In this document: positions 5,146 to 25,175 of the stretch, in pieces
How positions within the stretch are numbered: the stretch's first letter is position 1
Layout of the letters: the number at the start of each line of letters is the position of its first letter
NCBI GenBank assembly: GCA_009772965.1
Contig: WPAF01000007.1
Coordinates: 14,379 to 78,378 of the forward strand
From: Candidatus Saganbacteria bacterium
Lineage (GTDB): Bacteria; Margulisbacteria; WOR-1; XYC2-FULL-46-14; WPAF01
DNA length: 64,000 nt
Direction of reading: 5' to 3'
The notes under the pieces: model-generated
The model's input: only the letters and a program-made list of their open reading frames with translations
Databases searched by the model: none
What the model was told of the DNA's origin: nothing
Program-made: the position numbers and the translations under genes

Positions 5146-5147
5146 CG

Positions 5148-8840: not shown

Positions 8841-8848
8841 ACCCCTCC

Positions 8849-10054: not shown

Positions 10055-10727
10055 CCAAGTCGTAAATTGTTTGTTGCCCCCGCAAAAGCCTGTTGTCCAT
10101 GGTATATCTTGTGGGTCTAATTTTCCCTTTTAAATCTTTGATCTGGTCTAAGGTCATTATTTTGAGAAGCTCTCCAGAAAGAGTATAATATTCAAATTTC
10201 AAAGGCATATTATTGCTCTTTTCCACCCAGCATTTGATCCTATCATAAGTAATATTGCCCTCTTTAGCCTTTAAATCCAACAAATAGCAGGGTGTTTTGT
10301 TGAGCTTCTCTTCTCCCATTAATCTGATCGTGTAATCTTTTAAAAAATCTATCCCTAAAATATCACTATTAGAAAAATCTGTCCCAGACAAGCTTTGTCG
10401 TCCGGAAACCTTAATGCTTTTTTCAATGTTTGGCAGGTAATACCAAACATTCTCTTTATTTTTTAAGTAGCCAGTCCCCCTTTCTTTGGCTGGAGCCAGG
10501 AATTTAGCCAGAGTTTTTTCTTTGCCCTTTGCCCAGACTTTAAGACGAAACCTTTTATCTTCTTGTCCCGGCTTCTTTGCCAATAGGTCACAAGTAAGAA
10601 TCGCTGCTTGATCAGAGATGATTTTGTCTGCCTCGCGCATAATCGTGTTTGGATCTAAAGCACATACGTAATTTCCTGAAAATAACAAAAATAAAAATAC
10701 TATATGTATTAACATTTTCTTTTTCAC
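9981..10727 (-). CDS. LolA-like periplasmic lipoprotein-carrier fold protein (outer-membrane lipoprotein-sorting protein family)
   Basis: Signal peptide MKKKMLIHIVFLFLLFSGNYVCA. 248 aa. Co-located with FtsX-type ABC permeases as in LolA_like/DUF4367 families. Confidence 0.55.
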   Translation of the reverse strand: MKKKMLIHIVFLFLLFSGNYVCALDPNTIMREADKIISDQAAILTCDLLAKKPGQEDKRFRLKVWAKGKEKTLAKFLAPAKERGTGYLKNKENVWYYLPNIEKSIKVSGRQSLSGTDFSNSDILGIDFLKDYTIRLMGEEKLNKTPCYLLDLKAKEGNITYDRIKCWVEKSNNMPLKFEYYTLSGELLKIMTLDQIKDLKGKIRPTRYTMDNRLLRGQQTIYDLVDIEYLENLSDNVFTIRYMEKASE

Positions 10728-11956
10728 TTCCTTAATAATTTAATCGGGATCCGAGAAAGATATGCCCAGGTCGGATAGAGGGTTGCCAATATCGTTGTTA
10801 GATTAACAAATAGAAAAGTAAAGATCAAATTGCCCGCAGTAAGATGAAACCTAATTTGAGCCCCCCCAAACATATAAGTTAATGCCATGGAATTTAAAGG
10901 GATTCCTTGGAAAGAAAGAAACAGGGAAATAGCGGAGCCAAACAGTATTCCTAGAATAGAAAAGAACACACTGAGCAAAAGAGATTCAAACAATAGCAAG
11001 CCAAGGATTTGTTTTTTGAAGATGCCAATGGCCAGCATTGTTCCAATTTCTGTTTTTTTATATCGAATAGACATTAGAACCGAGTTTATTACAGTCAATG
11101 CCGAAATAAGCACAATAATTATGCATAAGACCCAGATCGACAATTTATTTGCCATAATAATCCCATATTCAAAAGTTCCCAGGGCTTTGTAATCTTTGAT
11201 CAGATAAATATTAGAGTCGAGTTTGGTTTTGAGATATTGGTAAGCGCTGCTAACATCCTTCTCATCACTTAAAGTGATTTGTAGCGCCTGAACCTTGTCA
11301 AAAGTGTTGGCCAATCGTTGTAAAGAGCCGGTATCAGTATATCCAACATTATCTAACCAAGGAATGGGTTCATGGTAAATCCCAGTAACAGTAAAAACGT
11401 CGGCATTGGTTCCCCCTTCTCTCATCTCTGTCATCAATGAAATCTTGTCTTTAGTCTTAACTCGGAGTTTGCTAGCTAATGTTTGACTGAGCACGATTTG
11501 ATTTTTTAAAGGCTGATCAAATATTTTTCCTTCATTAAATTTGAAGAGCTTAACAAATCGATTGGTTTCTTTGAAATCTATATTGCTTAGGTAGCCGACA
11601 AAGGCCTTGTTATATCCATAATATTGAGTAACAATCAGATATTTATATTTAAATAAAATGGTTTTTTTTGGGGGGGGGAGCTTTTTCAGGGTCTTCAGCT
11701 CAATCGCGTCAGATAAGGGGGGTAAAAGGTTAATAGGTGCTTCTAAGTCGTAATTAAGCAATGTTTTTTTTGTAATTTGAATGTGGCCGGTTTGGAGAGA
11801 AATCATATTATCGATAATTTGTCTGGAAAGTCCTGCGCCAAAAGAATTGGCAATAATAATGATGGAAGCGCTTGCAAAAATTGCCAGCCCAGTATATAAA
11901 GATAAATTACGATGGCGAAATATGTTTTTAAATACCAGGTTGAAAAACTTTATCAT
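10724..11956 (-). CDS. ABC transporter permease, FtsX/MacB family
   Basis: 410 aa. N-terminal TM helix, large periplasmic domain, then a C-terminal 3-TM FtsX domain (IRYKKTEIGTMLAIG). Confidence 0.8.
   Translation of the reverse strand: MIKFFNLVFKNIFRHRNLSLYTGLAIFASASIIIIANSFGAGLSRQIIDNMISLQTGHIQITKKTLLNYDLEAPINLLPPLSDAIELKTLKKLPPPKKTILFKYKYLIVTQYYGYNKAFVGYLSNIDFKETNRFVKLFKFNEGKIFDQPLKNQIVLSQTLASKLRVKTKDKISLMTEMREGGTNADVFTVTGIYHEPIPWLDNVGYTDTGSLQRLANTFDKVQALQITLSDEKDVSSAYQYLKTKLDSNIYLIKDYKALGTFEYGIIMANKLSIWVLCIIIVLISALTVINSVLMSIRYKKTEIGTMLAIGIFKKQILGLLLFESLLLSVFFSILGILFGSAISLFLSFQGIPLNSMALTYMFGGAQIRFHLTAGNLIFTFLFVNLTTILATLYPTWAYLSRIPIKLLRK
11662..11680. repeat. Homopolymer tract T9 then G10 inside the FtsX permease coding sequence. 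It encodes KKLPPPKK on the minus strand
   Basis: Read directly: gttttttttt gggggggggg at 11661-11680. Confidence 0.9.
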
Positions 11957-11964
11957 TTTTTTAT

Positions 11965-13194
11965 TTAGTCCGCATATAAAAGATCGATTATTTTGTAACG
12001 ATTAATTTTACGAATGGAATAATAAGCAGTAACAGCAACTAAAAGATTAATGGAGACCACCGGCACAATGATTCCTGAAATTGTTAACATAGGCCTTAAG
12101 CAATCTCCGCCAAATAAGAATTTTAATGCCCCGATATAAGCAGGAATCCCAATATTATAAATAATTAGAGAGAAAAAAAGGCCCGCTAATGCGCCTATAA
12201 CTGAAAATATAAAAGAAATAAAAACTATCTCAAGAGAAAATAAATGTCGTATTGTTTTTTGGGATAGGCCCATTGCTAGCATTATTCCAATTTCATTCTG
12301 GCGTTCATATAGATTCATATTAACATTATTAACAATGCTAAAAATGATAATAATCAATATTATAACAACTCCAATATAACCAATAATTCGATTGGCAACG
12401 GCTAAAACTTCAAACGATCCCCCCAGTTCTTTCCAGGTGTAGGCTCTGGCCTCATGGCCGGTTTGCTCAAATCTTGTGTTTATTGATTTGGCTGTTTGAT
12501 CCAAATTTGTGTGCTTTGGGAATTTTAGCGCTAAACTAAGGGTTTGGTTGTCCAAGCGCATAAGTTCATTAAACCCTTTTTGGTTCATCCAGACATTCCA
12601 TTGTTGGAAAGGGGTTCCGGACGCAAGCCCTACAAACTGGGCTTTAACTGCGGAAATAGAACCATCTGCGGCTTGAGTAAAGAATATAATGGCCTCCCCA
12701 ATCTTAAAATTAAAAAATTTCCTTGCACCTTCAGCAATCATGACCTCCGGCTTCTCTTCATTAAAATAACGCCCTTGCTTCACTTTTATTTCTGGGAAGA
12801 TATTTTGCCCCTTATTCGCCTCAAATGTTTCAATAAAAACCCAATCCAGCCGATCTTTATGGCTAACCATGGAACTTACGTAAGCCTTAGTTGTTATGCC
12901 GACAATGTCTGGGAATAGTGTTTTTAAGCTTTTTATGAGCTCTTTTTTATTGTTCAGGAATTCGAGATTGTTTTGAGGTGATCCAAGGGAAATACCGGCG
13001 GGATTGTTCAGGGAAGAAAAAATAAGGATATCGCCAGTTGATGAATCAATTAATGTCCGAGTGAGGTTTGTTTGAATGGCATGATTATAGGCATTGCTGA
13101 AAATCATTAATGCGCTACAGAGAACAATCGTTAAACCTAAAAGAAAAGACTGTTTTTTATGCCGGAATATATTTGCCCAACTTAACTTTATCAC
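11965..13194 (-). CDS. ABC transporter permease, FtsX/MacB family (second copy)
   Basis: 409 aa, same architecture. C-terminal FtsX motif RQNEIGIMLAMG. Confidence 0.8.
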   Translation of the reverse strand: MIKLSWANIFRHKKQSFLLGLTIVLCSALMIFSNAYNHAIQTNLTRTLIDSSTGDILIFSSLNNPAGISLGSPQNNLEFLNNKKELIKSLKTLFPDIVGITTKAYVSSMVSHKDRLDWVFIETFEANKGQNIFPEIKVKQGRYFNEEKPEVMIAEGARKFFNFKIGEAIIFFTQAADGSISAVKAQFVGLASGTPFQQWNVWMNQKGFNELMRLDNQTLSLALKFPKHTNLDQTAKSINTRFEQTGHEARAYTWKELGGSFEVLAVANRIIGYIGVVIILIIIIFSIVNNVNMNLYERQNEIGIMLAMGLSQKTIRHLFSLEIVFISFIFSVIGALAGLFFSLIIYNIGIPAYIGALKFLFGGDCLRPMLTISGIIVPVVSINLLVAVTAYYSIRKINRYKIIDLLYAD

Positions 13195-14132
13195 GGAGAA
13201 GATAGCTCGCTAACAAATTTTGTAACAATTTGATTGAACTCTGCGGGTTTTTCTTCGTGGGGTAAATGACCGGCGTTTTCGAGTATTTCAAATTGCGCTT
13301 GTGGAAAAAAGACTTGAAACCTTCTAGCCATTTCCATTGGATGCCAAGGATCTTTGTCTCCCCAAACAATAAGTGCCGGCATAGTTATTTTTGCAAGGTC
13401 AATATTACGAGGATCATGTTGCCTAGTTTCGCGCAAAGAAGCGCGGTTAGAACCAGGTAAGGTTAGTGGTTTATAAATGGCCTCTACCATTTCCTCTGTT
13501 ACCAATCTTTTATCATGGAATATTTCTAATAATTGTCGCCTAACCATCCATCGGTTATTTAAGGCCATCATTATTTCGCCTAAAATGGGAACCTTTAAAA
13601 TATCCCAAAGCAGCGGACGATCATGGGAAATTCCACACGAAGAGACAAGAACAATGCCACTTACAAGGTCAGGGCGACTGCTGGCTAAATCAAGGACGAA
13701 GGCTCCTCCGGCAGAACTGCCAATTAAAACTGTTTTTGTAACTTTTCGAGAGGCAAGAAAGGCTTCAATAAAATCAGCCATTGCCCGTATGCTATACCGT
13801 CCTCTTGGTCTCTCACTATAGCCAAAACCTTTAAGATCAAGGGCAAGGGTTCTGAAGTTTTGGGACAAAGGATATAGGTTATTGCGCCACGTATACATCC
13901 AACTTTGAGCGCCGTGAATAAGGGTTATGGGAGAGCCTTGACCAATATCAATATAATGGGTTGCCAGTCCTTTAATAATATCAAATTGCGTAGACAGACT
14001 AATTCTTTGGCCTTGGCTATTAAGAACCGTTAATTCTTTTGGCCGTACTTGCGACAATGCTTTTTGCCGAGGCAGCATAGGAACGGATCCTGGATTATGG
14101 CTAACTATTGCTGGGATATTACCATTTGACAT
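13191..14132 (-). CDS. Alpha/beta-fold hydrolase
   Basis: HGAQSW in the oxyanion region and a GSSAGG nucleophile-elbow-like motif; 313 aa. Confidence 0.75.
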   Translation of the reverse strand: MSNGNIPAIVSHNPGSVPMLPRQKALSQVRPKELTVLNSQGQRISLSTQFDIIKGLATHYIDIGQGSPITLIHGAQSWMYTWRNNLYPLSQNFRTLALDLKGFGYSERPRGRYSIRAMADFIEAFLASRKVTKTVLIGSSAGGAFVLDLASSRPDLVSGIVLVSSCGISHDRPLLWDILKVPILGEIMMALNNRWMVRRQLLEIFHDKRLVTEEMVEAIYKPLTLPGSNRASLRETRQHDPRNIDLAKITMPALIVWGDKDPWHPMEMARRFQVFFPQAQFEILENAGHLPHEEKPAEFNQIVTKFVSELSSP

Positions 14133-14152
14133 TTCTTAACATATACAATATC

Positions 14153-14164
14153 ATTCATATGAAT
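14153..14164. promoter_or_regulatory. Perfect 12-bp palindrome ATTCATATGAAT, candidate ArsR operator
   Basis: Lies in the 73-bp divergent intergenic region directly upstream of arsR. ArsR/SmtB repressors bind dyad-symmetric operators overlapping their own promoters. Confidence 0.35.
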
Positions 14165-14205
14165 GTTTTGTCAACTATTGATCTGAATCTAAATAAAGTA
14201 ACTTT

Positions 14206-14517
14206 ATGAAAAAGTTAAAGCAAAATCAAAATAAAATGCTAGACAAATTGGAGGATATCTTTAAAGTTTTAGCGGATGTCACGCGTATTCAAATAATACT
14301 AGCTTTAGCCGAGCAAAGCCGAAGCGTGAATGCTTTAGTTGAGATTGTAGGCACAAGCCAATCTAATGTTTCCCATCAATTACGCCTATTAAAAAACAAA
14401 AACCTTGTAATAGCTGAACGAAAAGGAAAGAAGATATATTATTCTGTGACTTGCCAACACCTTGTTAACACATTAGATAATCTCCTGGCCCATATTGGCC
14501 ACGAAGGTAAAGACTAA
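14206..14517 (+). CDS. ArsR/SmtB family metalloregulatory transcriptional repressor
   Basis: 103 aa. LKVLADVTRIQIILALAEQSRSVNALVEIVGTSQSNVSHQLRLLK is a winged HTH of the ArsR family. Confidence 0.85.
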   Translation: MKKLKQNQNKMLDKLEDIFKVLADVTRIQIILALAEQSRSVNALVEIVGTSQSNVSHQLRLLKNKNLVIAERKGKKIYYSVTCQHLVNTLDNLLAHIGHEGKD

Positions 14518-16657
14518 AGCTATGTCCCAATGTAGTTGTTCTAGCCGCCAACCCTTATGCTCTTTCCCGCAAACGGAACAATCAGGGGGTAGATTAGAAA
14601 AAATAGTCTTTGAATTACAAAATATCCATTGTTTAGATTGCTCCTCATTTATTGAATCATATCTCCTACATTTTCCAGGTGTAATTGAGGCTAAAGCTAA
14701 TTTTGTTTTAAATAGTATAGCCATTAAATACGACCCTTTACGCATTACTCCAGAGGGATTAAAAAGAGCCTTGCGGCAACCCGGCTTTGAACTTCCGCAA
14801 AATATTTTTATTAAAGGGTTTACATATTATGACCATTACCAAGAGATAATCCATACAATTTTAACTGGTTTGTTTTTACTTTGTTCATTTATGTTCTCTA
14901 AAATAGTTCCCCCAAGCTTATTTGCCGGCCTCTTTTCTATCTTAGCTGTATTTATTGGAGGATTTCCAATATTCTTAAATGCTTTTTTAGCGTTGCGCAT
15001 ATTTAAACTTAATGCCAATAGTTTAGTCTCGCTGGCCTCGGTCAGTGCGCTGCTTCATGGCGATTTTTTCGAAGCAGGTTTGGTCATTTTTATTATGCTG
15101 TTGGGGGAATCTTTAGAAGAGTTTACTTTGACCAAAACTAAGAAGGCAATCTCTTCGATCGTAAAAGGAATGCCGCAATGGGCCATTATCAAAGTAAATG
15201 GAGAAGAAAAAAAAGTTGCTGTTAATTCCCTTAAAAAGGATGATGTTGTTATTATTCGGCCAGGGATATATCTTCCAGCTGATGGAACAATTGTTTCGGG
15301 GGAAGGTTGCTTAAATGAGGCGGCCCTTACCGGGGAATCTCTCCCTATAACCAAAACCATAGGGGATCAAGTCTATGGTGGAACAATTAGTGAAAACGGA
15401 GCCTTTGAAGTGCGGCTTGACAAAGTTGGAGAAGACACCATTTTAGCTAAAGTTAAAAATCTTATTCTTCAGGCGGAAAACAGCCGCGTCCCCAGTGAAA
15501 GGGTTGCTGATCATTTTGCACAATATTTCGTTCCAGTGGTTCTTATTTTAGCCGCGGGGATCTTTTTAATTACCAACGATATTAGCAGGGCTTTAACGGT
15601 ATTGATTGTTGCTTGTCCTTGTGCCCTCATTATTGGAATACCGACTGCAATTATAGCTGGAATTGGCAAAGCGGCGCAAAATGGAATACTTATTAGAGGG
15701 GGAGAATTTTTAGAGAAAATTTCTTCTTGTAATGCTATTTATTTTGATAAAACCGGAACATTAACACATGGAAAATTAGCAATTCATCAGATTGTTGTGA
15801 ACGACGGATACGAAGAAAAAGATGTGGTTGCTTATGCCGCTTTAGCTGAAAAAAGATCAGAACATAAGATTGCTGAAGCCCTTCGTTGTTATGCTGAAAA
15901 AAAACATCTTTCTATCCCTGATCCTGAAAAATTTCAGACTTATGGCGGCAAAGGGGTCAAAGTGGTTTATCAGGGACAAGAAATTGTTAGCGGCAATGAT
16001 CAACTTTTAAAAGAATTAGATATCCAGCTGATAAATTTTAACAATGATCAAAAAATATATGGCACAAAAATTAATGTGGCTATAGATCAGAAACATGTTG
16101 GCAGCCTTTACCTTACCGATCAACCAAAAGATGAGGTGTCAACAGTGTTCAAGCAGCTTAAGGGGCTTGGCATACAGGAAATAGGCGTAATTACTGGAGA
16201 CAGGGTCGAAGCGGCTAGATTTCTAGAAAAAACTCTCCCAGCAAACTATATTCATTCTGACCTTTTGCCTGGCCAAAAACACGCGCTTATTAAGCACTGC
16301 CAAGAACAGGGGAAGAAAGTTATTATGGTTGGTGATGGGATTAATGATGGGTCTTCACTTGCACAGGCTGATGTTGGTATATCAATGGGGCAAATGGGAA
16401 CGGATTTAGCCATTGAGTGCTCAGATATTATTATTTCTTCTGACCGCCTTACAAAAATCCCCCAAGTTATTCAACTAAGCCGAAGAGTGGTTTCTATTAT
16501 CAAACAAAATATCGTTCTTGCGACTATTTTCAATTTGGTTATGATCCTTCTTTCTATGCTGGGCCTTGTTTCAATGATAATGGGGGCTGTTTTTCATCAA
16601 ATTAGTTCATTATTTGTAATATTTAACTCTATGCGAATTTTATTTTCTAGGAGGTAA
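14495..16657 (+). CDS. Heavy-metal translocating P1B-type ATPase
   Basis: N-terminal Cys-rich region with an HMA-like CLDC. TM CPC motif VACPCAL, phosphorylation site DKTGTLT, hinge GDGINDG. The start could be the ATG at ~14522. Confidence 0.9.
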   Translation: MATKVKTKAMSQCSCSSRQPLCSFPQTEQSGGRLEKIVFELQNIHCLDCSSFIESYLLHFPGVIEAKANFVLNSIAIKYDPLRITPEGLKRALRQPGFELPQNIFIKGFTYYDHYQEIIHTILTGLFLLCSFMFSKIVPPSLFAGLFSILAVFIGGFPIFLNAFLALRIFKLNANSLVSLASVSALLHGDFFEAGLVIFIMLLGESLEEFTLTKTKKAISSIVKGMPQWAIIKVNGEEKKVAVNSLKKDDVVIIRPGIYLPADGTIVSGEGCLNEAALTGESLPITKTIGDQVYGGTISENGAFEVRLDKVGEDTILAKVKNLILQAENSRVPSERVADHFAQYFVPVVLILAAGIFLITNDISRALTVLIVACPCALIIGIPTAIIAGIGKAAQNGILIRGGEFLEKISSCNAIYFDKTGTLTHGKLAIHQIVVNDGYEEKDVVAYAALAEKRSEHKIAEALRCYAEKKHLSIPDPEKFQTYGGKGVKVVYQGQEIVSGNDQLLKELDIQLINFNNDQKIYGTKINVAIDQKHVGSLYLTDQPKDEVSTVFKQLKGLGIQEIGVITGDRVEAARFLEKTLPANYIHSDLLPGQKHALIKHCQEQGKKVIMVGDGINDGSSLAQADVGISMGQMGTDLAIECSDIIISSDRLTKIPQVIQLSRRVVSIIKQNIVLATIFNLVMILLSMLGLVSMIMGAVFHQISSLFVIFNSMRILFSRR

Positions 16658-16662
16658 TCAGT

Positions 16663-18132
16663 ATGAACAGCAAAAAAGAAACACCAAAAAGGACAAAAAG
16701 TGACAAAATATTTTACGACCTAACACGAAGTTGCTGCCCCGTATGCCTAAAGCTAATAGATGCCCAGATCTACTTTGAAAATAATTGCGTTTTTTTAGAA
16801 AAACACTGTCCAGCCCATGGCTCAACAAAAGTGTTAGTATCAACAAATATTGAATGGTTTAAATATGTTCGTTCATATAGCGTCCCTTATTCTGTCCCAT
16901 TGCGTCTTACCTCCAAGCTAAACAAAGGCTGTCCAGAAGACTGTGGCCTTTGTTCAGAGCATCGACAACATACTTCAATTGGGGTTATTAGGGTAACAAA
17001 CCGTTGCGACTTGAACTGTCCAGTTTGTTGTGTCCATAATGCAAATAATTGGGATTTGCCGCTTTCCCAAGCTAAATATATGTTTGAGCAACTCCAGAAA
17101 TCTGAAGGAACGACTGAAATTGTTTCCATTTCAGGCGGCGAACCAACCCTGCATCCCCAAATTATTGATATTATTAATTATGCTTACAGCTGTAATGTAA
17201 CTCGTTGTACGCTTAGTAGTAATGGCATAAGAATTGCGGAAGATGAGGCTTTCGTTGAAGAACTGGCGAAGAGTAAGGCTTATATAAACTTATCCTTTGA
17301 TGGTTTTAATGCTAACGCTTACTTACAGTTGAGAGGGAAAGACTTGATTGCGATCAAATTAAAGGCTTTACAAAATCTTGAAAAATATAATATCCCGACC
17401 ACTTTAATCCCGACTATTGCTAAAGATATTAATGAAGATGAAATGGGACCTATTTTTGAATATGGCCTTTCTAAATCTTTTATCCGATCGTTACATATTC
17501 AACCTTTGACCCATATCGGTGCAGGGGGGAGGAATTTTAATGTGGATCTTTTGCAACATGTGACGACCAGTGATATTTTGCGGAAAATTGAAGAATACTT
17601 CAAGGGAAGAATCTCTGCCTATGATTTTGTGCCGGAGCCAAATGAATGTTTTTTAACCGGGCTTTTTTTAAAGGGGAGTCGGAGGGGTTTTATTTCTCTC
17701 TCAAGATTGGGGAATTTACATCCTTATCTTGATAAGTTCTTAAATGAACCAGCGCTTTCAGATAAAGACGTTAAGCGAATAATTATGGAAATATCCATGA
17801 ATATGCTTATGCCAAAAACCGCCATAAACAAGAACACTTCATTGAGAGAAAAAATAACCTATATCTCCCCACTGCTGGCTTTATCCAAGAAAATAGCTCA
17901 AACCTATTTTACTACTCCTAAGAAACAACTTGGTTTTGTTTTGTCAAATTTATTAGAAGAAAAAATGTTACTAGTTAATTTCCATACCATGATGGATAAA
18001 TATAGTTTTGATCAAAAAAGATTAGTTCAATGCTCCCATCATAGTGTTACTACGGATGGCCAATTAATTCCTGAATGTGCTGACACTCTTTTCCATTCAA
18101 AATTTTCAGAAAGAAATTTACTAAAAAAATGA
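16663..18132 (+). CDS. Radical SAM protein with a Cys-rich N-terminal zinc-ribbon-like extension; function unknown
   Basis: Two adjacent CxxxCxxC motifs, CPEDCGLC and CDLNCPVC, then a GGEP-type SAM-binding motif ISGGEPTLHP. N-terminus CCPVC...C...CPAHG. Strong RBS 6 nt after the ATPase stop. Confidence 0.85.
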   Translation: MNSKKETPKRTKSDKIFYDLTRSCCPVCLKLIDAQIYFENNCVFLEKHCPAHGSTKVLVSTNIEWFKYVRSYSVPYSVPLRLTSKLNKGCPEDCGLCSEHRQHTSIGVIRVTNRCDLNCPVCCVHNANNWDLPLSQAKYMFEQLQKSEGTTEIVSISGGEPTLHPQIIDIINYAYSCNVTRCTLSSNGIRIAEDEAFVEELAKSKAYINLSFDGFNANAYLQLRGKDLIAIKLKALQNLEKYNIPTTLIPTIAKDINEDEMGPIFEYGLSKSFIRSLHIQPLTHIGAGGRNFNVDLLQHVTTSDILRKIEEYFKGRISAYDFVPEPNECFLTGLFLKGSRRGFISLSRLGNLHPYLDKFLNEPALSDKDVKRIIMEISMNMLMPKTAINKNTSLREKITYISPLLALSKKIAQTYFTTPKKQLGFVLSNLLEEKMLLVNFHTMMDKYSFDQKRLVQCSHHSVTTDGQLIPECADTLFHSKFSERNLLKK

Positions 18133-19655
18133 AGGCTAACCCAAAAATATTATATTTGCGCTCTGCTTGGCAAGCACTTTATCCGGTGGGGGTCATACAG
18201 TTAATCGATTATTTGCATAAAAAATACCCCTTTTGCCAGCAAAAATTATTAGATTTAACTTTATTCCCCAAAAAAGAGCGCTGGCAACAAATATTCAATG
18301 AGATTAAAGCTTTTCAACCAGATTTTATTTGTTATTCCTGGCGGGACATCCAGATTTTCTTGCCATCTACTGATGATAAAAAAACATTGGAATTAACCTT
18401 TAAAGCGCTCAATCCTCGCAATATAACAGACCTGGTTTTTGTTATTAGGCAATATTTTAGCAATTATTTAGCCTTCAATGGGCTTATTTATGAAAACCTT
18501 TACTATATAAAGAAAATCAGACAATGCTTTCCATCAATCTCTTTTATTCTTGGGGGAACCGCTTTCTCTCTTTTTGGCGAAGCCCTATTAAAAAAATGCC
18601 CAAATGGAACCATTGGCGTTGTTGGTGAAGGTGAGCCGGCTTTAGATAATATTATCTTTAAAGGGGATATTGACATTAACAATGTTCTTGTTAAGAAAAA
18701 TGGGAAGATAGCTCGCGGACAAAAGCCCGCATCCTGTCTAAACTTAGGTCAACAGACAAAAGGAATAGATTTTGAATATATATTTAATGAGGTGTTCCCA
18801 CAATTGGGATATTATTTTCAAAACCCTAATTCTTATATAGGGGTTCAGACAAAACGAGGTTGTTTGCAAAAATGCATCTTTTGTAATAGTAAGACCCTGG
18901 AAGGGGCTACCTTAAGATTTCGCCCAATTCAGGCGGTTATAGAAGATATAACTTGCCTAAATAAGAATTACGGGGTAAAAAATATATGGTTTACTGATTC
19001 CCAATTTATTTCCTCCGACGCCTGTCTAGTTAATAATGCACGACTTTTAGAAGAAATAATAATCCGACAATTAGACATAAAATGGAGCAGTTATATTCGT
19101 CTTGAAAGAATTGATAAAAAATTTGCTGAATTGTTGGTTAAGTCTGGGTTGGATGTTTTTGAGCTTTCTCTTACTTCTGGGTCACAAAGAATGGTAGATT
19201 TTCTAAAGCTCGGATTTTCGCTTAAGGATGTTTATCAAAAAGCAACACTGCTTAAAGAAGCCGGATTTCAGAATCGAGTAATTATTAATTATTCCCTTAA
19301 TGCGCCGGGAGAAACTAAAGCAAGCTTAATGGAAAGCGTGGTAAGCTATCAAAAATTGGTAGAAATTTTTGGATGGGAAAATGTATGGCCGGAAATTTTT
19401 TTTCTGGGGGTAACCAAAGGAAGTGAACTTGAGGAATATTTAATTCGAAATAAGAAAATTCCTCGGGACGGCGTAGAGCCATTAAAGCTAAATCTAAAAT
19501 CAGCCAAATATTCTGTTTATAATCCTCTGCCTTTCAACAAAGTATTTGCTAGACTATTTTTTGAAAGCCTTAAAGAGAAAAAGCTTTCTCCTGGTAAATA
19601 TATTATGGAAAATCTTGAGAAGGCTTTTGAAAGGATGCGAAAGGATCACGCATGA
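18129..19655 (+). CDS. B12-binding-domain (class B) radical SAM protein
   Basis: N-terminal Rossmann-like domain, then RGCLQKCIFC (CxxxCxxC); 508 aa. Start overlaps the upstream stop (ATGA). Confidence 0.75.
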   Translation: MKANPKILYLRSAWQALYPVGVIQLIDYLHKKYPFCQQKLLDLTLFPKKERWQQIFNEIKAFQPDFICYSWRDIQIFLPSTDDKKTLELTFKALNPRNITDLVFVIRQYFSNYLAFNGLIYENLYYIKKIRQCFPSISFILGGTAFSLFGEALLKKCPNGTIGVVGEGEPALDNIIFKGDIDINNVLVKKNGKIARGQKPASCLNLGQQTKGIDFEYIFNEVFPQLGYYFQNPNSYIGVQTKRGCLQKCIFCNSKTLEGATLRFRPIQAVIEDITCLNKNYGVKNIWFTDSQFISSDACLVNNARLLEEIIIRQLDIKWSSYIRLERIDKKFAELLVKSGLDVFELSLTSGSQRMVDFLKLGFSLKDVYQKATLLKEAGFQNRVIINYSLNAPGETKASLMESVVSYQKLVEIFGWENVWPEIFFLGVTKGSELEEYLIRNKKIPRDGVEPLKLNLKSAKYSVYNPLPFNKVFARLFFESLKEKKLSPGKYIMENLEKAFERMRKDHA

Positions 19656-20734
19656 AAATTCTTTTAACCGGCGCCACAGGTTTTGTTGGAAGTAATATTT
19701 TAGAATTTCTGGTCGAAAATCACGAAGTTGATGAAATTTATTTAATTCTTCGGTCTACATCAGAACAAAATGCTTCTTCACGATTTCAAGATATGGTTGC
19801 CGCATCTAATACAATTGCCAGACATTACAACAAGGTGAAGCTTTTTAACGGTGATTTGAGCGTTAGGAATTTTGGCTTAAAGGAAAACGAGTATAAGTTT
19901 CTAACTCAACAAACCAATATTGTCATTCATGCCGCGGCCTCAACGCAATTTGACCTAGAATTGACAGAAGCCATGAAAATTAACTTCGATGGCACCAAGC
20001 ATATCCTCGATTTTTCAGAAGCATGCAAGGAATTCAAGCATCTTTTTTATATTAGCACTGCATATATTGTTGGCAATTACCCCCAGGTTTTTAAAGAAAG
20101 CGATTATAATGTTAATCAAAAGTTTGAAAACTCCTATGAAGAAACAAAGTATTTAGCCGAAGGAGAAGTAAGAAGAGGAATTAGCTCTCTACACTCGACT
20201 ATTATTCGCCCTTCTATCCTCATCGGCGATTCACAAACTGGAAAGGTTCAGGGGTTCAAAGTCTTATATCCATTTATTAAATTGATTGCGCAAAAAGCTC
20301 TTTCTATCATTCCATGCCAATCAGAAGCCTGTCTAAATTTGGTTCCAATTGACTACTTTAATCTGATATTTAGCATTCTTTTTAAATATCAACTATCAAA
20401 GAATAAACCATCCCATCTAAACATTAGTACTTCCACCTTCCATGTTATTAACAATCAAAATGCCATGATTAAAGATTTAATTGAGTACGGGTGTCCAATT
20501 TTAAATATTGAAGCGCCTCTTTTAGTAGATCCGGAAAAATTACCACCTCAAAGAAGAAGGGTTATTAAAAGAATGTTTAATCATTATTTCCCTTATCTCA
20601 ATCGCCCACATTTATTTGACAATAGTAATACATTAAAAGTTGCTCAGCATCAGTGCCCAATTATTGGCAAGGATATTATAAAGAATATGCTTAATTATTG
20701 TTGCGAAGTAGGATATTTAAATAAACATCGATGA
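19652..20734 (+). CDS. NAD(P)-binding thioester-reductase / fatty-acyl-reductase-type SDR (NAD_binding_4-like)
   Basis: LTGATGFVGSNILEFL then LRS, and a YEETKYLAE YxxxK catalytic motif. Matches the male-sterility/thioester-reductase domain family. ATGA overlap on both sides. Confidence 0.75.
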   Translation: MKILLTGATGFVGSNILEFLVENHEVDEIYLILRSTSEQNASSRFQDMVAASNTIARHYNKVKLFNGDLSVRNFGLKENEYKFLTQQTNIVIHAAASTQFDLELTEAMKINFDGTKHILDFSEACKEFKHLFYISTAYIVGNYPQVFKESDYNVNQKFENSYEETKYLAEGEVRRGISSLHSTIIRPSILIGDSQTGKVQGFKVLYPFIKLIAQKALSIIPCQSEACLNLVPIDYFNLIFSILFKYQLSKNKPSHLNISTSTFHVINNQNAMIKDLIEYGCPILNIEAPLLVDPEKLPPQRRRVIKRMFNHYFPYLNRPHLFDNSNTLKVAQHQCPIIGKDIIKNMLNYCCEVGYLNKHR

Positions 20735-21900
20735 CTTCATCTGAGATTAATTTTAGAATTGTAGATACTGTTGAGGCTTGTGGAAAAGATCGATGGGACG
20801 CTCTCGTGGGAGAACATGGGATTTGCAATTGCTATGATTATCTTCTCGCTTTAGAGAAATCCAAAATTAATGATTTCCGATACAAATATATATTAATTTA
20901 TCAAGAGAATACTTTAATCTTTGGCATGGTTGTTTTTGTCACCCAGCAACTCTATTTAGATGTTCCTGTCTCGCAAGAGTTTAAAAAAGTTATTAATTTC
21001 CTTCGTAATGTCTTCCCTAGATTTTTAGTCGCAAAAGCTATTGTTTGTGGTTCTCCGATAGCTGAATGTAATTATTTTTCTTATAAATCCGGCACTAACT
21101 TGCAATTTGTTTTTATGAAAGCCCAAGAAGCCATAGCAAAATTAGAACAAGAAGAAAAGATCAACTTAGTGGTTTTTAAGGATTTTGAAGAAAATCAACA
21201 AGTTGACCCCCACCTAAAAAAGCTTGGTTTTACTAAAGTTTATTGCCTTCCCAGCACTGTTCTAAAAACAAGATATGCCGACTTCAAAAAATACCTCAAA
21301 AGTCTTAAAAATAAATATAGAGCGAATATAGTTAATAAAATAAATAAAATTCACTGCAATCTTGATTCGGAAATTTCCTGGCAAATAAAAGATAAAATTG
21401 AAAGTATTTATTCTTTATATTTACAAACTTATGAGCGAGCGCCAGTAAAGTTTGAAAAATTAAATAAACAGTTTTTTCTGGATCTTTTCTCGAATTTGCC
21501 CGAAAAGAAGCGCTGTCTTTTACTCTTTAAGTATAATCAAAATATTATCGCTTTCGCAGTTCTTCTCATATGCAAAAATAATTGTATTAATTTTCGTATA
21601 GGAATGGATTACAGTGTCAACAAGGAATTGCATGTTTATTTCCATCTTTTATATCACAACATTGAATTTTGTATTAAACAACAGTTGGATAATCTTTATT
21701 TGAGCCAGACCTCATATCGGCCAAAATTAGAGCTTGGTGCAAGACTTTATCCGATCGTTGGTTATTTAAAGCATAGGAATCCTATTTGGCATAGGATATT
21801 ATCATTATTAATGAAAATATTTTTTAGAAGGTATTCTGAGTTAGCACTGTCCGCCAATCCTATAGAAACTTTAAAAAAAATATTTCCGGAGTATTATTAA
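20731..21900 (+). CDS. DUF482/FemAB-like (PF04339-like) GNAT-fold putative acyltransferase
   Basis: 389 aa. N-terminal W..L......CYDYLLALEKS recalls the DUF482 fLsALEeSG signature, recalled from memory and not searched. Confidence 0.55.
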   Translation: MTSSEINFRIVDTVEACGKDRWDALVGEHGICNCYDYLLALEKSKINDFRYKYILIYQENTLIFGMVVFVTQQLYLDVPVSQEFKKVINFLRNVFPRFLVAKAIVCGSPIAECNYFSYKSGTNLQFVFMKAQEAIAKLEQEEKINLVVFKDFEENQQVDPHLKKLGFTKVYCLPSTVLKTRYADFKKYLKSLKNKYRANIVNKINKIHCNLDSEISWQIKDKIESIYSLYLQTYERAPVKFEKLNKQFFLDLFSNLPEKKRCLLLFKYNQNIIAFAVLLICKNNCINFRIGMDYSVNKELHVYFHLLYHNIEFCIKQQLDNLYLSQTSYRPKLELGARLYPIVGYLKHRNPIWHRILSLLMKIFFRRYSELALSANPIETLKKIFPEYY

Positions 21901-21905
21901 TAGAA

Positions 21906-22586
21906 ATGAAATACTTAATAAGTATACTATTCGTATGTTTAACTATTTCAATAATTAGTAGGCCCGCTATCGGAAGCGAAGATAAGATTATAGATATATT
22001 AAGAAAGGCAGAAAAGGCTTACTCTCAAATTGGAAATTACTGCGCTGTTTTGGTTAAAAAGGAAAGAATTAATGATAAATATATTCTCGAGGAAATTTTG
22101 CTTAAATTCAAAAAACCATTTAAAGTTTACCTGAAATGGATTGGAAAAAACCATAAGGGTAGAGAGATAATATTTGACAAAGATAAAAACAATGGAAATA
22201 TGCTTGTAAGAGAAGGCAGTTTTCTACATTTTCTTACACACTCATTAAATCCCAAAAGCGATATGGCAATGGATGGACAGAGGCATTCAATAGATGAAAT
22301 TGGCATCGGAAACTTGATAACGAAAATTAGCATGGAAGTTAATAAAGCAGCGCAAAATAATGATATCGAATTATCATTTTCTGAAGATAATAACCACTAT
22401 GCTCTTTACGGTCATTTTCTGAATGATGAATATTATTCAAAGAAGTTTCATTTATTTGTAAATAAAGACAATTATATGATTAAACGAGCTGTTTTTTATG
22501 ATTCGAAAGGAATTTTTGAGGATTATACTTTTGATCAATTAGAATTAAACCAAAATTTCAGTGAGAAGGATTTCAGGTTTTATTAA
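21906..22586 (+). CDS. Secreted LolA-like/DUF1571-like lipid-carrier fold protein
   Basis: Signal peptide MKYLISILFVCLTISIISRPAIG; 226 aa. The composition is typical of periplasmic LolA-like proteins. Last gene of the co-directional operon. Confidence 0.45.
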   Translation: MKYLISILFVCLTISIISRPAIGSEDKIIDILRKAEKAYSQIGNYCAVLVKKERINDKYILEEILLKFKKPFKVYLKWIGKNHKGREIIFDKDKNNGNMLVREGSFLHFLTHSLNPKSDMAMDGQRHSIDEIGIGNLITKISMEVNKAAQNNDIELSFSEDNNHYALYGHFLNDEYYSKKFHLFVNKDNYMIKRAVFYDSKGIFEDYTFDQLELNQNFSEKDFRFY

Positions 22587-22857
22587 ATTGGATTTTAGAA
22601 AAGTATGCGGATGAGGGGCAAATATTTTTTAATCCGCATTGGGGGCAAAGCGGCTTTTTAGCCTTGCAGATATTTCGGCCGTGTTCAATTAATAAATACG
22701 CGGCATCTCCCCACATCGGCTTTGGAATTATTTTCATTAAATCCTGCTCGATTTTCTCCGGATTTTTATTTTTTGATAATCCCAGCCTTTGCGACAACCG
22801 GATTACATGCGTATCAACCGTTATGCCTTCTATTTTATTAAAAGCGGTATAAAGCAC
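22573..22857 (-). pseudogene. Displaced 3' fragment of endonuclease III (nth), duplicate of nth residues ~122-204
   Basis: The 94-aa ORF is nearly identical to the C-terminal part of the intact nth at 23870..24517 (LYNAFNKIEGITVDTHVIRLSQRLGLSKNKNPEKIEQDLMKIIPKPMWGDAAYLLIEHGRNICKAKKPLCPQCGLKNICP). Confidence 0.7.
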
Positions 22858-22866
22858 AACTGATGC
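22616..22866. repeat. Direct repeat copy A, ~251 bp and ~97 percent identical to 23918..24169
   Basis: Aligned by eye. Runs gggcaaatattttttaatccgcattggggg ... aaagcacaactgatgc, with about 5-6 mismatches or indels. Confidence 0.85.
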
Positions 22867-23041: not shown

Positions 23042-23242
23042 ATGAAACCTTGGGACGTAGAAGAAACACGAAAAAAACTAAATAAATTATCATCAACCAG
23101 AAGCGTACAGATTTTCTTTGATCTTCAACATGCGGCTTTTAAGATAATTAAAGCGTCATTAAAAGATGAAAATCCGCATCTCTCCGCTGCGGAAATAAAA
23201 ATTAAAATAAATCAGTTAGCTGAATCTCTGGGGAAATTATGA
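23042..23242 (+). CDS. Small helical hypothetical protein, upstream partner of the nucleotidyltransferase (antitoxin-like position)
   Basis: 66 aa. Its stop overlaps the next start (ATGA). Confidence 0.4.
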   Translation: MKPWDVEETRKKLNKLSSTRSVQIFFDLQHAAFKIIKASLKDENPHLSAAEIKIKINQLAESLGKL

Positions 23243-23769
23243 ATTTTGAGAAATTACTATCTGGAATAGAAAAAATATTTAAAAAAAGTAAGATTCCTTA
23301 TATGTTAGTTGGTGGATTTGCTATAGCTTATTGGGGATATCCTCGTCAAAGCTTAGACATTGATATTGTTGTTGATCTCAATCTCAAAAATATCTTGACT
23401 TTTTTATCTTTAGCAAAACAATTAGGATTTAAATTTGATCAGCAAGAAATTCAAATGATACTACCGATTGGTAATCGTTTTGTTATGGAGCTCGGTGATT
23501 TTAGGGCAGATATTTGGCTTCCAAAAACTCAATTTGAAATAAATGCGTTAAAAAATAGGAATAGAAAAAAAGTTTTTGGATATAATTTTTCTATTATTAG
23601 TGCTGAAAATTTAATTCTTTCAAAACTGTTAGCAGGACGGCCGAGAGATTTCGAAGATGCAAAGACTGTTATTTTACGTCGAAAAAACAAGTTAAACAGG
23701 GATAATCTAATGCATCAGGCCTTGGCTCTAAATATTGGCGATCTATTAGATAAATTGTTTGCTGAATAG
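23239..23769 (+). CDS. Minimal nucleotidyltransferase-fold protein
   Basis: VGGFAIAYWGYPRQSLDIDIVV fits the NTase GG-x(n)-DhDh signature; 176 aa. Second gene of a 2-gene cassette between the nth repeats. Confidence 0.55.
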   Translation: MNFEKLLSGIEKIFKKSKIPYMLVGGFAIAYWGYPRQSLDIDIVVDLNLKNILTFLSLAKQLGFKFDQQEIQMILPIGNRFVMELGDFRADIWLPKTQFEINALKNRNRKKVFGYNFSIISAENLILSKLLAGRPRDFEDAKTVILRRKNKLNRDNLMHQALALNIGDLLDKLFAE

Positions 23770-23869: not shown

Positions 23870-24517
23870 TTATGCAACAGTCCCATTATAAAACTTATTC
23901 ATGAAAGAATCGTAAAACGGGCAAATATTTTTTAATCCGCATTGGGGGCAAAGCGGTTTTTTAGCCTTGCAGATATTTCGGCCGTGTTCAATTAATAAAT
24001 ACGCGGCATCTCCCCACATCGGCTTTGGGATTATTTTCATTAAATCCTGCTCGATTTTCTCAGGATTTTTATTTTTAGACAATCCCAGCCTTTGCGACAA
24101 CCGGATTACATGCGTATCAACCGTTATGCCTTCTATTTTATTAAAAGCGTTATAAAGCACAACTGATGCGGTTTTTCGTGCAACGCCGGGAAATTTGATT
24201 AATTCTTCCATAGAATCGGGAACTTTGCCATGATATTTTTCAACTATTATTTTTGCGGAATTAATGATGCTTTTTGCCTTGTTCCTGAAAAATCCGGTTG
24301 AGCGGATTTCCTGCTCAAAATCTTTAGCGCTTGCATCGGCATAATCTTTTGCGGTTTTGTATTTTTTAAATAAGGCTTCGGTGACAATGTTTACCCTTTT
24401 ATCCGTGCATTGGGCGGAAAGGATAGTGGCAACCAGCAAGTCGATTGGGGTTTTATAGTTTAGCGCGATTTTCGCGTTTGGATAAAACTTTTTTAAAAGT
24501 TTGAATATTTGGTTCAT
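23870..24517 (-). CDS. nth: Endonuclease III (DNA glycosylase/AP lyase)
   Basis: HhH-GPD motif LIKFPGVARKTASVVL, catalytic Lys region, and the C-terminal [4Fe-4S] loop CPQCGLKNICP. Confidence 0.9.
   Translation of the reverse strand: MNQIFKLLKKFYPNAKIALNYKTPIDLLVATILSAQCTDKRVNIVTEALFKKYKTAKDYADASAKDFEQEIRSTGFFRNKAKSIINSAKIIVEKYHGKVPDSMEELIKFPGVARKTASVVLYNAFNKIEGITVDTHVIRLSQRLGLSKNKNPEKIEQDLMKIIPKPMWGDAAYLLIEHGRNICKAKKPLCPQCGLKNICPFYDSFMNKFYNGTVA
23918..24169. repeat. Direct repeat copy B, inside the intact nth gene
   Basis: See copy A. Confidence 0.85.
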
Positions 24518-24962: not shown

Positions 24963-25163
24963 TTATCCCTTATTTATCGCTTCAAGTAATTCATCAATGG
25001 GAATCCCATGCACTTCCGCGGCCTGTTCCAATGTTTCCCCCTGGGCTATTACACAGCCCAGGCAGTGCATACCTCGCGACATTAAAACCGCCGCCGCCTT
25101 TGGTTTTATTCTCAATATATCAGCAATAGTTTGGCCTTTGGTAATCTTAGATTCTTCTGCCAT
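24963..25163 (-). CDS. DUF1858-like redox-disulfide domain protein
   Basis: 66 aa. HCLGC motif in a ...TIADIL...GMHCLGC...TLEQAA context. Confidence 0.5.
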   Translation of the reverse strand: MAEESKITKGQTIADILRIKPKAAAVLMSRGMHCLGCVIAQGETLEQAAEVHGIPIDELLEAINKG

Positions 25164-25175
25164 AGGTAAATTATA

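Follow-up and report, generated by a model that had tools for sequence, protein, structure and literature searches.

What product would call for two radical S-adenosylmethionine (SAM) enzymes, an acyl-type reductase and a putative transferase, all encoded directly behind a metal sensor and a heavy-metal pump, is the question raised by a gene cluster on contig WPAF01000007.1 of Candidatus Saganbacteria. The host is a metagenome-assembled genome, and 100% identical proteins are likewise named Candidatus Saganbacteria. The window analysed here is a 64,000-nucleotide stretch of this contig, in which the initial annotation, made from the sequence alone, had singled out seven co-directional genes as a candidate lipid or cofactor modification system. 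The segment from 8157 to 22586 is most likely one accessory island, consisting of two divergent compact operons with a common control region of 73 bp, and it has probably been transferred horizontally. With confidence that is about evenly balanced, the island is read from its sequence as directing the metal-responsive synthesis and export of a methylated, radical-modified and (amino)acylated lipid-like molecule. What is new is an uncharacterised radical SAM biosynthetic and export cluster built around a new subfamily of Tes enzymes, each part of which comes from a known superfamily. Nothing in the literature searched describes genes combined in this way.

Two divergent operons and a shared control region

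All seven plus-strand open reading frames (ORFs) of the proposed operon are present in the ORF list where the initial annotation had placed them, and the tight coupling it had claimed was confirmed base by base. Three junctions are 4-nt ATGA overlaps, located at 18129-18132 between the two radical SAM genes, at 19652-19655 between the second of these and the reductase gene and at 20731-20734 between the reductase and FemAB_like genes. Gaps of 5 nt separate the ATPase gene from the first radical SAM gene (16657/16663) and the FemAB_like gene from the DUF1571 gene (21900/21906). The likely ATPase start is the ATG at 14522, which lies 4 nt past the ArsR stop (14517); the mechanically called ORF begins at TTG 14495 and has a 23-nt overlap with ArsR. 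An AGGAGG sequence stands immediately 5' of the first radical SAM gene, and no convincing terminator was found within 14.2-22.6 kb. Across 7.8-24.6 kb, 11 terminator-like sites were observed, against 13.9 expected from shuffled sequence. The G+C content of the plus-strand enzyme block is 0.338, compared with 0.389 for the whole window.

The sequence motifs quoted earlier for these proteins were all found (CPEDCGLC, CDLNCPVC and the zinc ribbon; CPC, DKTGT and CLDC in the ATPase; GATGFVG and YEETK in the reductase), and most of the family assignments were borne out by Pfam and NCBIfam. The exceptions are the last gene, which encodes a DUF1571 protein rather than a LolA-like one, and the B12-binding domain, for which the Pfam match is below threshold. 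The extent given to the unit (14206-22586) proved too small: a divergent minus-strand operon at 8157-14132, separated from ArsR by 73 bp, belongs to it too. This operon encodes, in order, an alpha/beta-hydrolase, two FtsX/MacB-type permeases of the ATP-binding cassette (ABC) class, a PF17131 LolA_like protein, a weakly DUF1302-like protein and an ABC ATPase (Table 1). It is equally compact, with junctions of -4, 8, -4, -74 and 8 nt. The 4-nt overlaps join the permease gene at 11965-13194 to the hydrolase gene and the LolA_like gene to the permease gene upstream of it; the mechanical ORF of the DUF1302-like protein accounts for the 74-nt overlap with the LolA_like gene, and the ABC ATPase gene follows its predecessor after 8 nt.

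The shared control region contains back-to-back promoter-like sites. That on the plus strand reads TTGACA(14126)-17-TATCAT(14154), with 11 of 12 matches to the consensus, and that on the minus strand TTGACA(14174)-16-GATATT, with 10 of 12. A perfect 14-bp palindrome, CATTCATATGAATG, occupies positions 14152-14165, where it overlaps the plus-strand -10 element, and represents a candidate operator for ArsR. Control by a riboswitch or other RNA was considered and rejected, since an Rfam gathering scan of the whole window gave one tRNA and no riboswitch or other RNA element.

Table 1. Features of the island, in order of position within the window
Feature	Position	Strand	Supporting match
ABC transporter ATPase, last gene of divergent operon	8157-8840	-	ABC_tran E=1.3e-34
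Putative secreted/outer-membrane protein, weakly DUF1302-like, start codon uncertain	8849-10054	-	DUF1302 21.7 bits, E=1.2e-4 (cut-off 23.2)
Periplasmic LolA_like carrier (PF17131)	9981-10727	-	E=4.1e-52, 177 bits
FtsX/MacB-type ABC permease with periplasmic core domain	10724-11956	-	FtsX E=1.4e-12, MacB_PCD E=9e-8
Second FtsX-type ABC permease	11965-13194	-	FtsX E=1.4e-14
Alpha/beta-fold hydrolase, first gene of divergent operon	13191-14132	-	Abhydrolase_1 E=3.6e-30
Shared control region with back-to-back promoter-like sites and perfect palindrome (73 bp)	14133-14205		
ArsR/SmtB-family metal-sensing repressor, alpha5-type site	14206-14517	+	HTH_5 E=8e-13
P1B-type heavy-metal ATPase, CopA-like	14522-16657 (alternative start TTG 14495)	+	TIGR01525 536 bits (cut-off 346)
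Tes/GDGT-MAS-superfamily radical SAM enzyme, rare divergent clade	16663-18132	+	7TOL E=7.7e-58
Class-B-like (B12-type) radical SAM enzyme, slr0320 family	18129-19655	+	Radical_SAM E=1.8e-11
Stand-alone thioester/fatty-acyl reductase (NAD_binding_4)	19652-20734	+	NAD_binding_4 E=1.8e-55
FemAB_like (PF04339) tandem-GNAT transferase	20731-21900	+	44.7 bits (cut-off 27), E=1.4e-11
Secreted DUF1571 protein, candidate periplasmic carrier	21906-22586	+	DUF1571 (PF07608) E=2.5e-31, 109 bits

The end of the DUF1571 gene adjoins a truncated copy of nth, the gene for endonuclease III. The 3' part of nth is duplicated there as a 251-nt direct repeat with 98% identity (22616-22866 and 23919-24169), whose copies overlap minus-strand ORFs at 22573-22857 and 23870-24517. 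Enclosed by the two copies are 1.3 kb with a DUF6036 nucleotidyltransferase-like gene (23239-23769) and, upstream of it, a small ORF; this unit resembles a toxin-antitoxin-type insertion with target duplication. The repeat may be a recombination scar at the island border.

The radical SAM enzymes and their partner enzymes

The first radical SAM enzyme is a relative, in both sequence and structure, of the lipid-modifying enzyme Tes/GDGT-MAS, a kinship at which the initial annotation had hinted. A phmmer alignment with 7TOL spans residues 21-481 at ~26% identity, and the protein matches the Pfam families Zn_ribbon_HMPTM (E=1.4e-17) and Radical_SAM (E=1e-20). Its AlphaFold2 (AF2) model (pLDDT 89.4, pTM 0.90) superposes on 7TOL and 7TOM with template modelling (TM) scores of 0.78-0.80, and the structures that rank after these match the radical SAM core only (TM ~0.40). 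The enzyme has the four-domain layout of GDGT-MAS, comprising a rubredoxin-like ribbon, an N-terminal auxiliary-cluster domain, the radical SAM core and a C-terminal auxiliary-cluster domain. Three metal sites are spaced as in GDGT-MAS (motifs from PMC9433317) and show no variation in 120 of 120 homologs: the rubredoxin-type site CX2CX20CX2H (C25, C28, C49 and H52), the [4Fe-4S]N site CPEDCGLC (C90x3C94x2C97, with H100/H103) and the radical SAM cluster CDLNCPVC (C115x3C119x2C122). The likeness to Tes/GDGT-MAS (MJ0619) is one of full-length architecture and identical metal-site spacing. By contrast, the window comes from a bacterial host without an archaeal lipid pathway, and the gene stands among FemAB_like, reductase and exporter genes.

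The enzyme departs from Tes at its C-terminal cluster. TrsS, the best-scoring NCBIfam model (271.4 bits, cut-off 490), and Tes (NF045702, 245.4 bits, cut-off 450) both fell short of their thresholds, and the relatives within the clade score 236-276 bits against Tes. C-terminal residues were mapped to GDGT-MAS through the 7TOL alignment and the residue numbers of the structure paper, the Cys ligands of [4Fe-4S]C in GDGT-MAS being tentatively assigned from conservation and the published Met439. The resulting site is specific to the clade and consists of C329, H441, C457-x-H459 and C472. His441 takes the place of Met439, the labile ligand of GDGT-MAS. The Tes 'CC' pair has become C457-S458, its second residue being S, V or T throughout the five-member clade. 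Tyr459, which is strictly conserved in 1,000 archaeal Tes homologs (PMC9433317), is Ser461 in the window enzyme and Trp in its four clade relatives. C472 preserves the distal Cys, and Cys329 and His459 are invariant within the clade. Across the 120 hits, which show at least three C-terminal patterns, the site was 'EC…S' in 66, 'CC…C' in 44, 'C-x-H…C' in the 5 of the clade and 'SC' in 3, with 2 gapped. Given that both cut-offs were failed and that the C-terminal cluster ligands and Tyr459 are gone, Tes-type tail-to-tail coupling cannot be assumed.

The clade is very rare, being represented by five 90%-identity clusters among 5.8 billion proteins and by one species genome among 185,579. No further member at 45% identity or more was found in a JGI metagenome scan, which gave only ~30-42% relatives, or among plasmids, where PLSDB yielded relatives only at up to 33% identity. 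Among species-genome contigs, the scan gave the Bacillota contig already known and otherwise no more than a gammaproteobacterial match at 23%. This distribution bears on whether the island could serve core membrane lipids of a membrane-spanning, methyl-branched or ether type, such as the branched glycerol dialkyl glycerol tetraethers (brGDGTs), with Tes coupling tails, the B12-type radical SAM enzyme branching them and the reductase giving ether precursors. The Tes homology, the relation of the B12-type enzyme to a lipid B12-radical SAM family and the presence of a fatty-acyl-type reductase would suit such a pathway, and bacterial Tes homologs have been proposed as brGDGT markers, although none has been tied experimentally to such lipids (PMC11868695). 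The cluster shares with Mss, Ger and the proposed brGDGT pathways the concept of radical SAM chemistry on fatty-acyl tails with possible methylation or reduction (PMC13459092); it differs from them in being accessory and exporter-linked and in having no Ger/PlsA-type enzyme, Mss and Ger having been compared by concept rather than by sequence. Given the rarity of the clade, with no member in the JGI scan, its accessory distribution with one mobile-element context (L005, below), the exporters always associated with it and the lost Tes catalytic residues, a brGDGT-like pathway is considered very unlikely. The LytTR-type regulators of the Bacillota loci and the absence of any glycerol- or plasmalogen-type (Ger/PlsA-like) enzyme from the cluster point the same way. 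Mss, Ger and the proposed brGDGT pathways are reportedly described by Sahonero-Canavesi et al. 2022.

The second radical SAM enzyme aligns nearly end to end with the NCBIfam model rSAM_slr0320 (residues 6-503 on model positions 3-501 of 511), at 342.8 bits, and fails the cut-off of 775. BzaD and rSAM_ladder_B12 scored 150 and 145 bits, with alignments covering a large part of each model. The B12-binding domain attributed to it earlier is suggested by the full-length alignment with the slr0320 B12-radical SAM model but not by Pfam, where PF02310 reaches 21.5 bits (cut-off 32.1); close homologs carry precomputed PF02310 matches. The enzyme is a probable C-methyltransferase. It resembles the slr0320 family in its full-length alignment, its probable B12-type N-terminal region and a CX3CX2C motif at residue 245. 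It differs in scoring far under the family cut-off and in having its nearest homologs in Bacillota, not cyanobacteria: the closest, at 49% identity, is in the Bacillota cluster L012, and a Bacillota homolog scores 378.7 bits against slr0320. Protein slr0320 itself is a cyanobacterial high-light acclimation protein of unknown chemistry (PMC8065906). Arsenic radical SAM chemistry of the ArsS/ArsL type was also considered and rejected, ArsL belonging to another family (E=6.5e-6, to the B12-type enzyme only) and the cluster containing no ars genes.

The thioester/fatty-acyl reductase call was upheld, the best solved relatives of the protein being the terminal reductase domain of MxaA and a fatty acyl-CoA reductase. 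The NCBIfam model Thioester-redct scored 128 bits. The reductase gene directly precedes the FemAB_like gene in the window and in two further loci, L001 (33% identity) and L040 (32%); in L001, as in the window, their ends overlap.

The FemAB_like protein was modelled by AF2 with library homologs as alignment (pLDDT 95.8) and shows a tandem-GNAT fold. Its closest folds are FemX (TM 0.59-0.68), Sbb17/Sba18 (0.55-0.75) and MprF domains (0.46-0.57), followed by acyl-CoA tandem GNATs, including N-myristoyltransferase (0.44-0.54). The FemAB-like part of the earlier 'DUF482/FemAB-like acyltransferase' label held, whereas the nearest folds are aminoacyl-tRNA-dependent transferases and not acyltransferases; from the model, the protein is a probable (amino)acyl transferase. 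With FemX, Sbb17/Sba18 and the MprF domain it shares the tandem-GNAT fold (TM 0.46-0.75, query- or target-normalised), an association with an alpha/beta-hydrolase and envelope-directed functions; MprF is often paired with an alpha/beta-hydrolase. It differs from them in identity (9-12%), in belonging to PF04339 and not to PF02388 or PF09924, in having no membrane flippase domain and in being paired with a thioester reductase. No solved sequence relative was found, nor did the literature search find a characterised member of PF04339/DUF482. The family is large, an exhaustive HMMER search giving ~1,020 representative clusters at E<1e-10, compared with one match in a word-indexed search.

Its wider contexts point to acyl-derived amines. 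A homolog at 27% identity, in locus L039, overlaps the end of a gene for a PigE-like reductase/aminotransferase (801 bits, cut-off 850), and several PF04339 proteins are fused to alpha-oxoamine synthase domains of the BioF/serine-palmitoyltransferase (SPT) type. Because of the PigE-like and acyl carrier protein (ACP) context in L039 and the BioF/SPT fusions, the FemAB_like subfamily can be tied to acyl-chain-derived amines. Locus L039 (JGI 3300077675, Ga0634848_0000569; ~400-11160) is a separate uncharacterised cluster in the order large FtsX, ACP, AMP-ligase, HpnR-like B12-radical SAM, ACP, KAS, KAS-like, PigE-like, FemAB_like and radical SAM/SPASM, and it looks like a pathway to a methylated, fatty-amine-derived natural product. 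The PF04339 fusions P0251, P0291, P0332, P0257 and P0315 carry BioF/SPT-type aminotransferase-class-I/II, PilZ and histidine-kinase modules and EamA transporter halves, and may help in assigning a function to the family.

Recurrence of the gene set, the exporter and the metal module

Conservation of the neighbourhood was checked, and the gene set recurs across phyla; neither radical SAM enzyme was placed in a well-characterised family with unrelated substrates. The four non-self members of the clade fall into three lineages with readable context, L001 (with L012), L005 and L004, all of the related loci being from metagenome assemblies and several on short contigs. L001, a Bacillota metagenome-assembled genome, carries in order a P1B ATPase, MacB, ABC, a class-I methyltransferase, HlyD, a histidine kinase, a LytTR regulator, NAD_binding_4, FemAB_like and the radical SAM enzyme, with FtsX and an alpha/beta-hydrolase on the opposite strand. 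In L012 the B12-type radical SAM gene is divergent from the ATPase gene; L012 was rejected as an independent lineage, being 79-91% identical to L001. The order in L005 is methyltransferase, radical SAM enzyme, alpha/beta-hydrolase, FemAB_like, ABC and large FtsX, in a mobile-element-like setting with relaxase and serine recombinase genes. L004 reads ABC, large FtsX, radical SAM enzyme and a FemAB_like gene cut by the contig end. A further lineage, L040, has a histidine kinase, LytTR regulator, reductase, FemAB_like, ABC and a large permease.

The L001/L012 lineage supplies the best homologs of the first radical SAM enzyme (50%), the B12-type enzyme (49%), the hydrolase (35%) and the reductase (33%), together with a FemAB_like homolog at 35%; the closest FemAB_like relative (41%) is in L040. 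The occurrence of the best enzyme homologs in one Bacillota cluster with a heavy-metal P-type ATPase indicates a transferable functional unit. FemAB_like adjoins the radical SAM gene of the clade in four of four lineages and is accompanied by FtsX-type ABC exporters in every lineage. Given that FemAB_like and the other window partners are lacking from ~16 loci around ~35% homologs of the radical SAM enzyme, the partner set goes with the clade whose cluster site is altered. The order of the genes varies while content is kept, as would be expected of a functionally linked, horizontally moving cassette.

The Bacillota relatives could also suggest a cluster for a peptide made on ribosomes and modified after translation (RiPP), with a ribosomal peptide as substrate of the radical SAM enzymes, FemAB_like attaching an amino acid taken from aminoacyl-tRNA and the ABC system serving in export or immunity. 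LytTR systems, HlyD/MacB or BceAB-like transporters and a mobile context are typical of bacteriocin loci, and FemAB_like resembles aminoacyl-tRNA-dependent peptide synthases. A search of five loci for a conserved small ORF (20-120 aa), however, found only shadow frames of known genes, and the radical SAM enzyme carries no SPASM, twitch or RRE domain, its sole full-length structural match being the lipid enzyme GDGT-MAS. Acyl chemistry is indicated instead by the thioester reductase and by the acyl-ACP surroundings in which the distant FemAB_like homolog is found, and a peptide product is regarded as highly improbable.

The loci around the ~35% radical SAM homologs raise a different alternative, namely that the enzyme, like its TrsS-type relatives, does not couple two chains and instead employs its auxiliary cluster to insert or attach a heteroatom (sulfur, selenium or a metalloid) at an alkyl carbon, which its partner then methylates, the product being an organo-chalcogen or metal-binding amphiphile. 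These loci carry ArsP-type permeases, class-I methyltransferases, ArsR, Acr3-like (SBF), LMWPc, DsbD/CcdA, thioredoxin-like and Se/S-carrier genes. A heteroatom product would explain the sensor and the pump, it would suit an altered C-terminal cluster site, and Tes chemistry itself has an intermediate of the carbon-sulfur(cluster) kind (PMC9433317; PMC13459092). Across the family, the radical SAM enzyme has a translationally coupled methyltransferase, which is a class-I enzyme in L005, L009 and L043 and the B12-type enzyme in the window. TrsS is the best NCBIfam match of the radical SAM enzyme, and TsoR the best specific model for ArsR. The likeness to the TrsS/Tso system (NF045646, NF045707) lies in the pairing of an ArsR-type regulator with a Tes-related radical SAM enzyme, TrsS itself being a (seleno)protein; the comparison draws on NCBIfam model names and a review table only. 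Beyond this the partner genes are wholly different: the TrsS and TsoR scores are far below their cut-offs, NCBIfam or Pfam scans of 13 cluster proteins gave no match to TsoA, B, C, X or Y, and the cluster showed no sign of selenocysteine. No gene for handling sulfur, selenium or arsenic is present in the window cluster, L001 or L005, and this alternative is judged decidedly unlikely. The TrsS/Tso system was reportedly defined by Haft & Tolstoy 2025.

In the wider Tes/TrsS-like family, bacterial and archaeal (L008-L011, L042 and L043; ~30-37% homologs of the radical SAM enzyme), Lgt- and ICMT/PEMT-family membrane enzymes also adjoin, and this mixed lipid-type and metalloid/chalcogen-type context seems to be uncharacterised. 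The class-I methyltransferases of L001 (3291-3977) and L005 (9316-9990) have the corrinoid protein-associated methyltransferase CpaM as their best model, at 98 and 81 bits (cut-off 180). A corrinoid link is possible in clusters with (L012) or without (L005) a B12-radical SAM gene.

The divergent operon encodes a Lol-like ABC exporter, which would extract an amphiphile from the inner membrane. As in the LolCDE-LolA and MacB systems, two FtsX-type permeases, one ABC ATPase, a MacB periplasmic core and a LolA_like protein are encoded together in one operon. The permeases are not LolCE orthologs: against NCBIfam lolCE (TIGR02212) they reach 67 bits (10724-11956) and 58 bits (11965-13194), failing the cut-off of 362. 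The operon further differs from LolCDE loci in starting with an alpha/beta-hydrolase gene, in holding the DUF1302-like protein and in diverging from a biosynthetic operon. The ABC ATPase is 37-45% identical to those of L001, L005, L004 and L040, and the hydrolase 35% identical to that of L001, where its gene likewise precedes an FtsX gene.

The LolA-like carrier expected at the end of the plus-strand operon turned out to be the LolA_like protein of the minus strand, which has an N-terminal hydrophobic signal-like segment. The DUF1571 protein scores 17.6 bits against LolA (cut-off 23.6, failed), also has an N-terminal signal-like hydrophobic segment and possibly adopts a LolA-like fold; BLASTP detected no significant similarity between it and the LolA_like protein of the window, and no DUF1571 homolog was found in the related clusters. 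The DUF1302-like protein has a hydrophobic segment at residues 28-46. In this diderm-type genome the exporter is thus accompanied by two signal-bearing candidate carriers and a putative outer-membrane protein.

At the head of the plus-strand operon, the ArsR protein passed the NCBIfam model HTH_metalloreg (82.8 bits, cut-off 55) and failed TsoR (58.5 bits, cut-off 115). It contains C83-x-H85-x10-H96-x2-H99, in which C83 is the sole Cys of the protein. The spacing equals that of the alpha5 metal site of SmtB/CzrA, D-x-H-x10-H-x2-E/H, with Cys replacing Asp as the first ligand. Given this spacing, and the palindrome in the 73-bp divergent region that both operons share, ArsR looks like a real metal sensor placed to control both.

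The ATPase has E1-E2_ATPase, Hydrolase and HMA matches in Pfam and carries CLDC at 37 (in the HMA domain), CPC at 365, DKTGT at 409 and GDGxND. Its closest solved relatives by sequence are CopA (349 bits), ZntA (281) and CadA (258), and it passed the Cu model TIGR01511 narrowly (403 bits, cut-off 397) and the Cd model by a wider margin (443 bits, cut-off 313). The motifs in its last two helices, 'IFN' and 'HQISS', are unusual; Cu(I) pumps are marked by YN with MxxSS and Zn/Cd/Pb pumps by K with DxG, compared with FN and HQISS here. The apparent metal wiring varies by lineage, with a sensor and a CopA-like pump in Saganbacteria and a ZntA-type pump with a LytTR two-component system in Bacillota. 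The idea of metal-responsive control put forward in the initial annotation is strengthened by the alpha5-type site of ArsR, the promoter palindrome and the recurrence of a P1B pump in the Bacillota cluster.

The sensor and pump could still form a metal-resistance pair that happens to abut an independent biosynthesis and export cluster, metal being irrelevant to the product. ArsR-P1B pairs are a classic stand-alone metal-resistance unit, and the window genes resemble the cadCA, czr and copA operons in having a winged-helix ArsR, a CPC-type HMA-bearing pump 4 nt later and a promoter palindrome. The pumps of the two phyla are not orthologous (CopA-like in the window, ZntA-type with K...DxG in L001/L012; 29-33% identity), and none was found within the available flanks of L005 or, on its sequenced side, of L004, whose contig ends ~350 nt past the radical SAM gene. 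Unlike those operons, the window operon runs on unbroken into five more genes, with a gap of only 5 nt between the pump and radical SAM genes, the AGGAGG and no terminator, and its regulator adjoins the divergent region from which the exporter operon starts as well. A second phylum again has a P1B pump at the cluster, for which the chance per locus is a few percent on a rough estimate, and the wider radical SAM family often stands alongside ArsR-type and metalloid genes. Chance abutment is rated as unlikely. As the pumps differ in subtype, any real link to a pump was made or remade independently and not inherited; both selection for the link and coincidence would account for this.

The proposed route and what weighs for and against it

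A route by which the island could make and export a metal-induced lipid-like molecule can be sketched, each step being held with less confidence than the overall picture. ArsR bound at the palindrome would lift its repression of both operons in the presence of its metal, and the plus-strand operon would supply the CopA-like P1B efflux pump and four enzymes. The NAD_binding_4 reductase might first free an acyl thioester reductively as an aldehyde or alcohol, after which FemAB_like, whose gene is coupled to that of the reductase, could load the amine or alcohol so formed with an aminoacyl or acyl group. The Tes-like enzyme would then act on an unactivated alkyl carbon by hydrogen abstraction and, using its modified C-terminal Fe-S site, form a C-C cross-link or a C-S bond. 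The B12-type enzyme would C-methylate the chain, a task that a class-I methyltransferase may perform in the relatives, and the alpha/beta-hydrolase could trim or transfer an ester. Finally, the two-permease FtsX/MacB-type ABC machine would pull the amphiphilic product from the inner membrane and hand it to the LolA_like and DUF1571 carriers and then to the outer-envelope protein. The substrate, the order of steps, the product, its regulation by metal and a role in envelope remodelling under metal or cation stress are all conjectural parts of this scheme, whereas the gene content, the coupling, the assignments to families and folds and the co-inheritance across phyla are shown by the data.

Several findings weigh against it. 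Genes for an acyl-activating enzyme, an ACP, an aminotransferase and a glycerol-linked enzyme are all missing from the cluster, and none of its enzymes has a demonstrated substrate. The radical SAM enzyme misses the Tes and TrsS thresholds and has exchanged Met439, the 'CC' pair and Tyr459 of Tes, and the nearest loci outside its clade have metalloid-, sulfur- or selenium-type rather than lipid contexts. Neither the B12-type enzyme nor DUF1571 is a universal member of the clusters. The pumps differ in subtype between phyla, with none seen at L005 or on the sequenced side of L004, and the independent lineages number only about four to six, mostly on short contigs.

In a bolder version, the product would be an envelope lipid of an unknown class, a fatty alcohol or amine aminoacylated from aminoacyl-tRNA that is cross-linked tail to tail or heteroatom-functionalised by a new Tes subfamily with a His-containing auxiliary cluster, C-methylated, delivered to the outer envelope by the Lol-like system and switched on by the metal sensor along with the pump. 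This version is thought quite unlikely; if true, it would amount to a metal-inducible 'bola-lipid armour' and would give a bacterial Tes homolog its first function. The island is not yet evidence of a new principle, and it is a good experimental lead.

Its interest lies in what it offers for the study of bacterial Tes homologs, which are widespread and are already used as markers of brGDGT producers, none having been experimentally tied to function (PMC11868695; PMC9433317). The island provides an operon-sized test case, with a distinct Tes subfamily, an altered catalytic cluster, defined partners and an exporter of its own in two phyla. If the product is a lipid, Tes-type radical chemistry would extend past glycerol tetraethers, and Tes homology alone would be a poor proxy for brGDGT synthesis. 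The cluster also gives a first genomic context to three families of unknown chemistry, namely DUF1571, the B12 radical SAM enzymes of the slr0320 type and PF04339, which numbers about a thousand representative clusters. Should the association with a metal sensor and pump be real, it would tie metal stress to the remodelling of envelope lipids.

Elsewhere in the window, three long plus-strand ORFs have no Pfam match at E<=1e-5 (45631-50496, 1,621 aa; 30973-33219, 748 aa; 51884-53059, 391 aa). A 247-aa plus-strand ORF at 24997-25740 lies antisense to ribD (25176-26315, minus strand); its translation is hydrophobic and of low complexity, and it is probably a shadow ORF rather than a gene.

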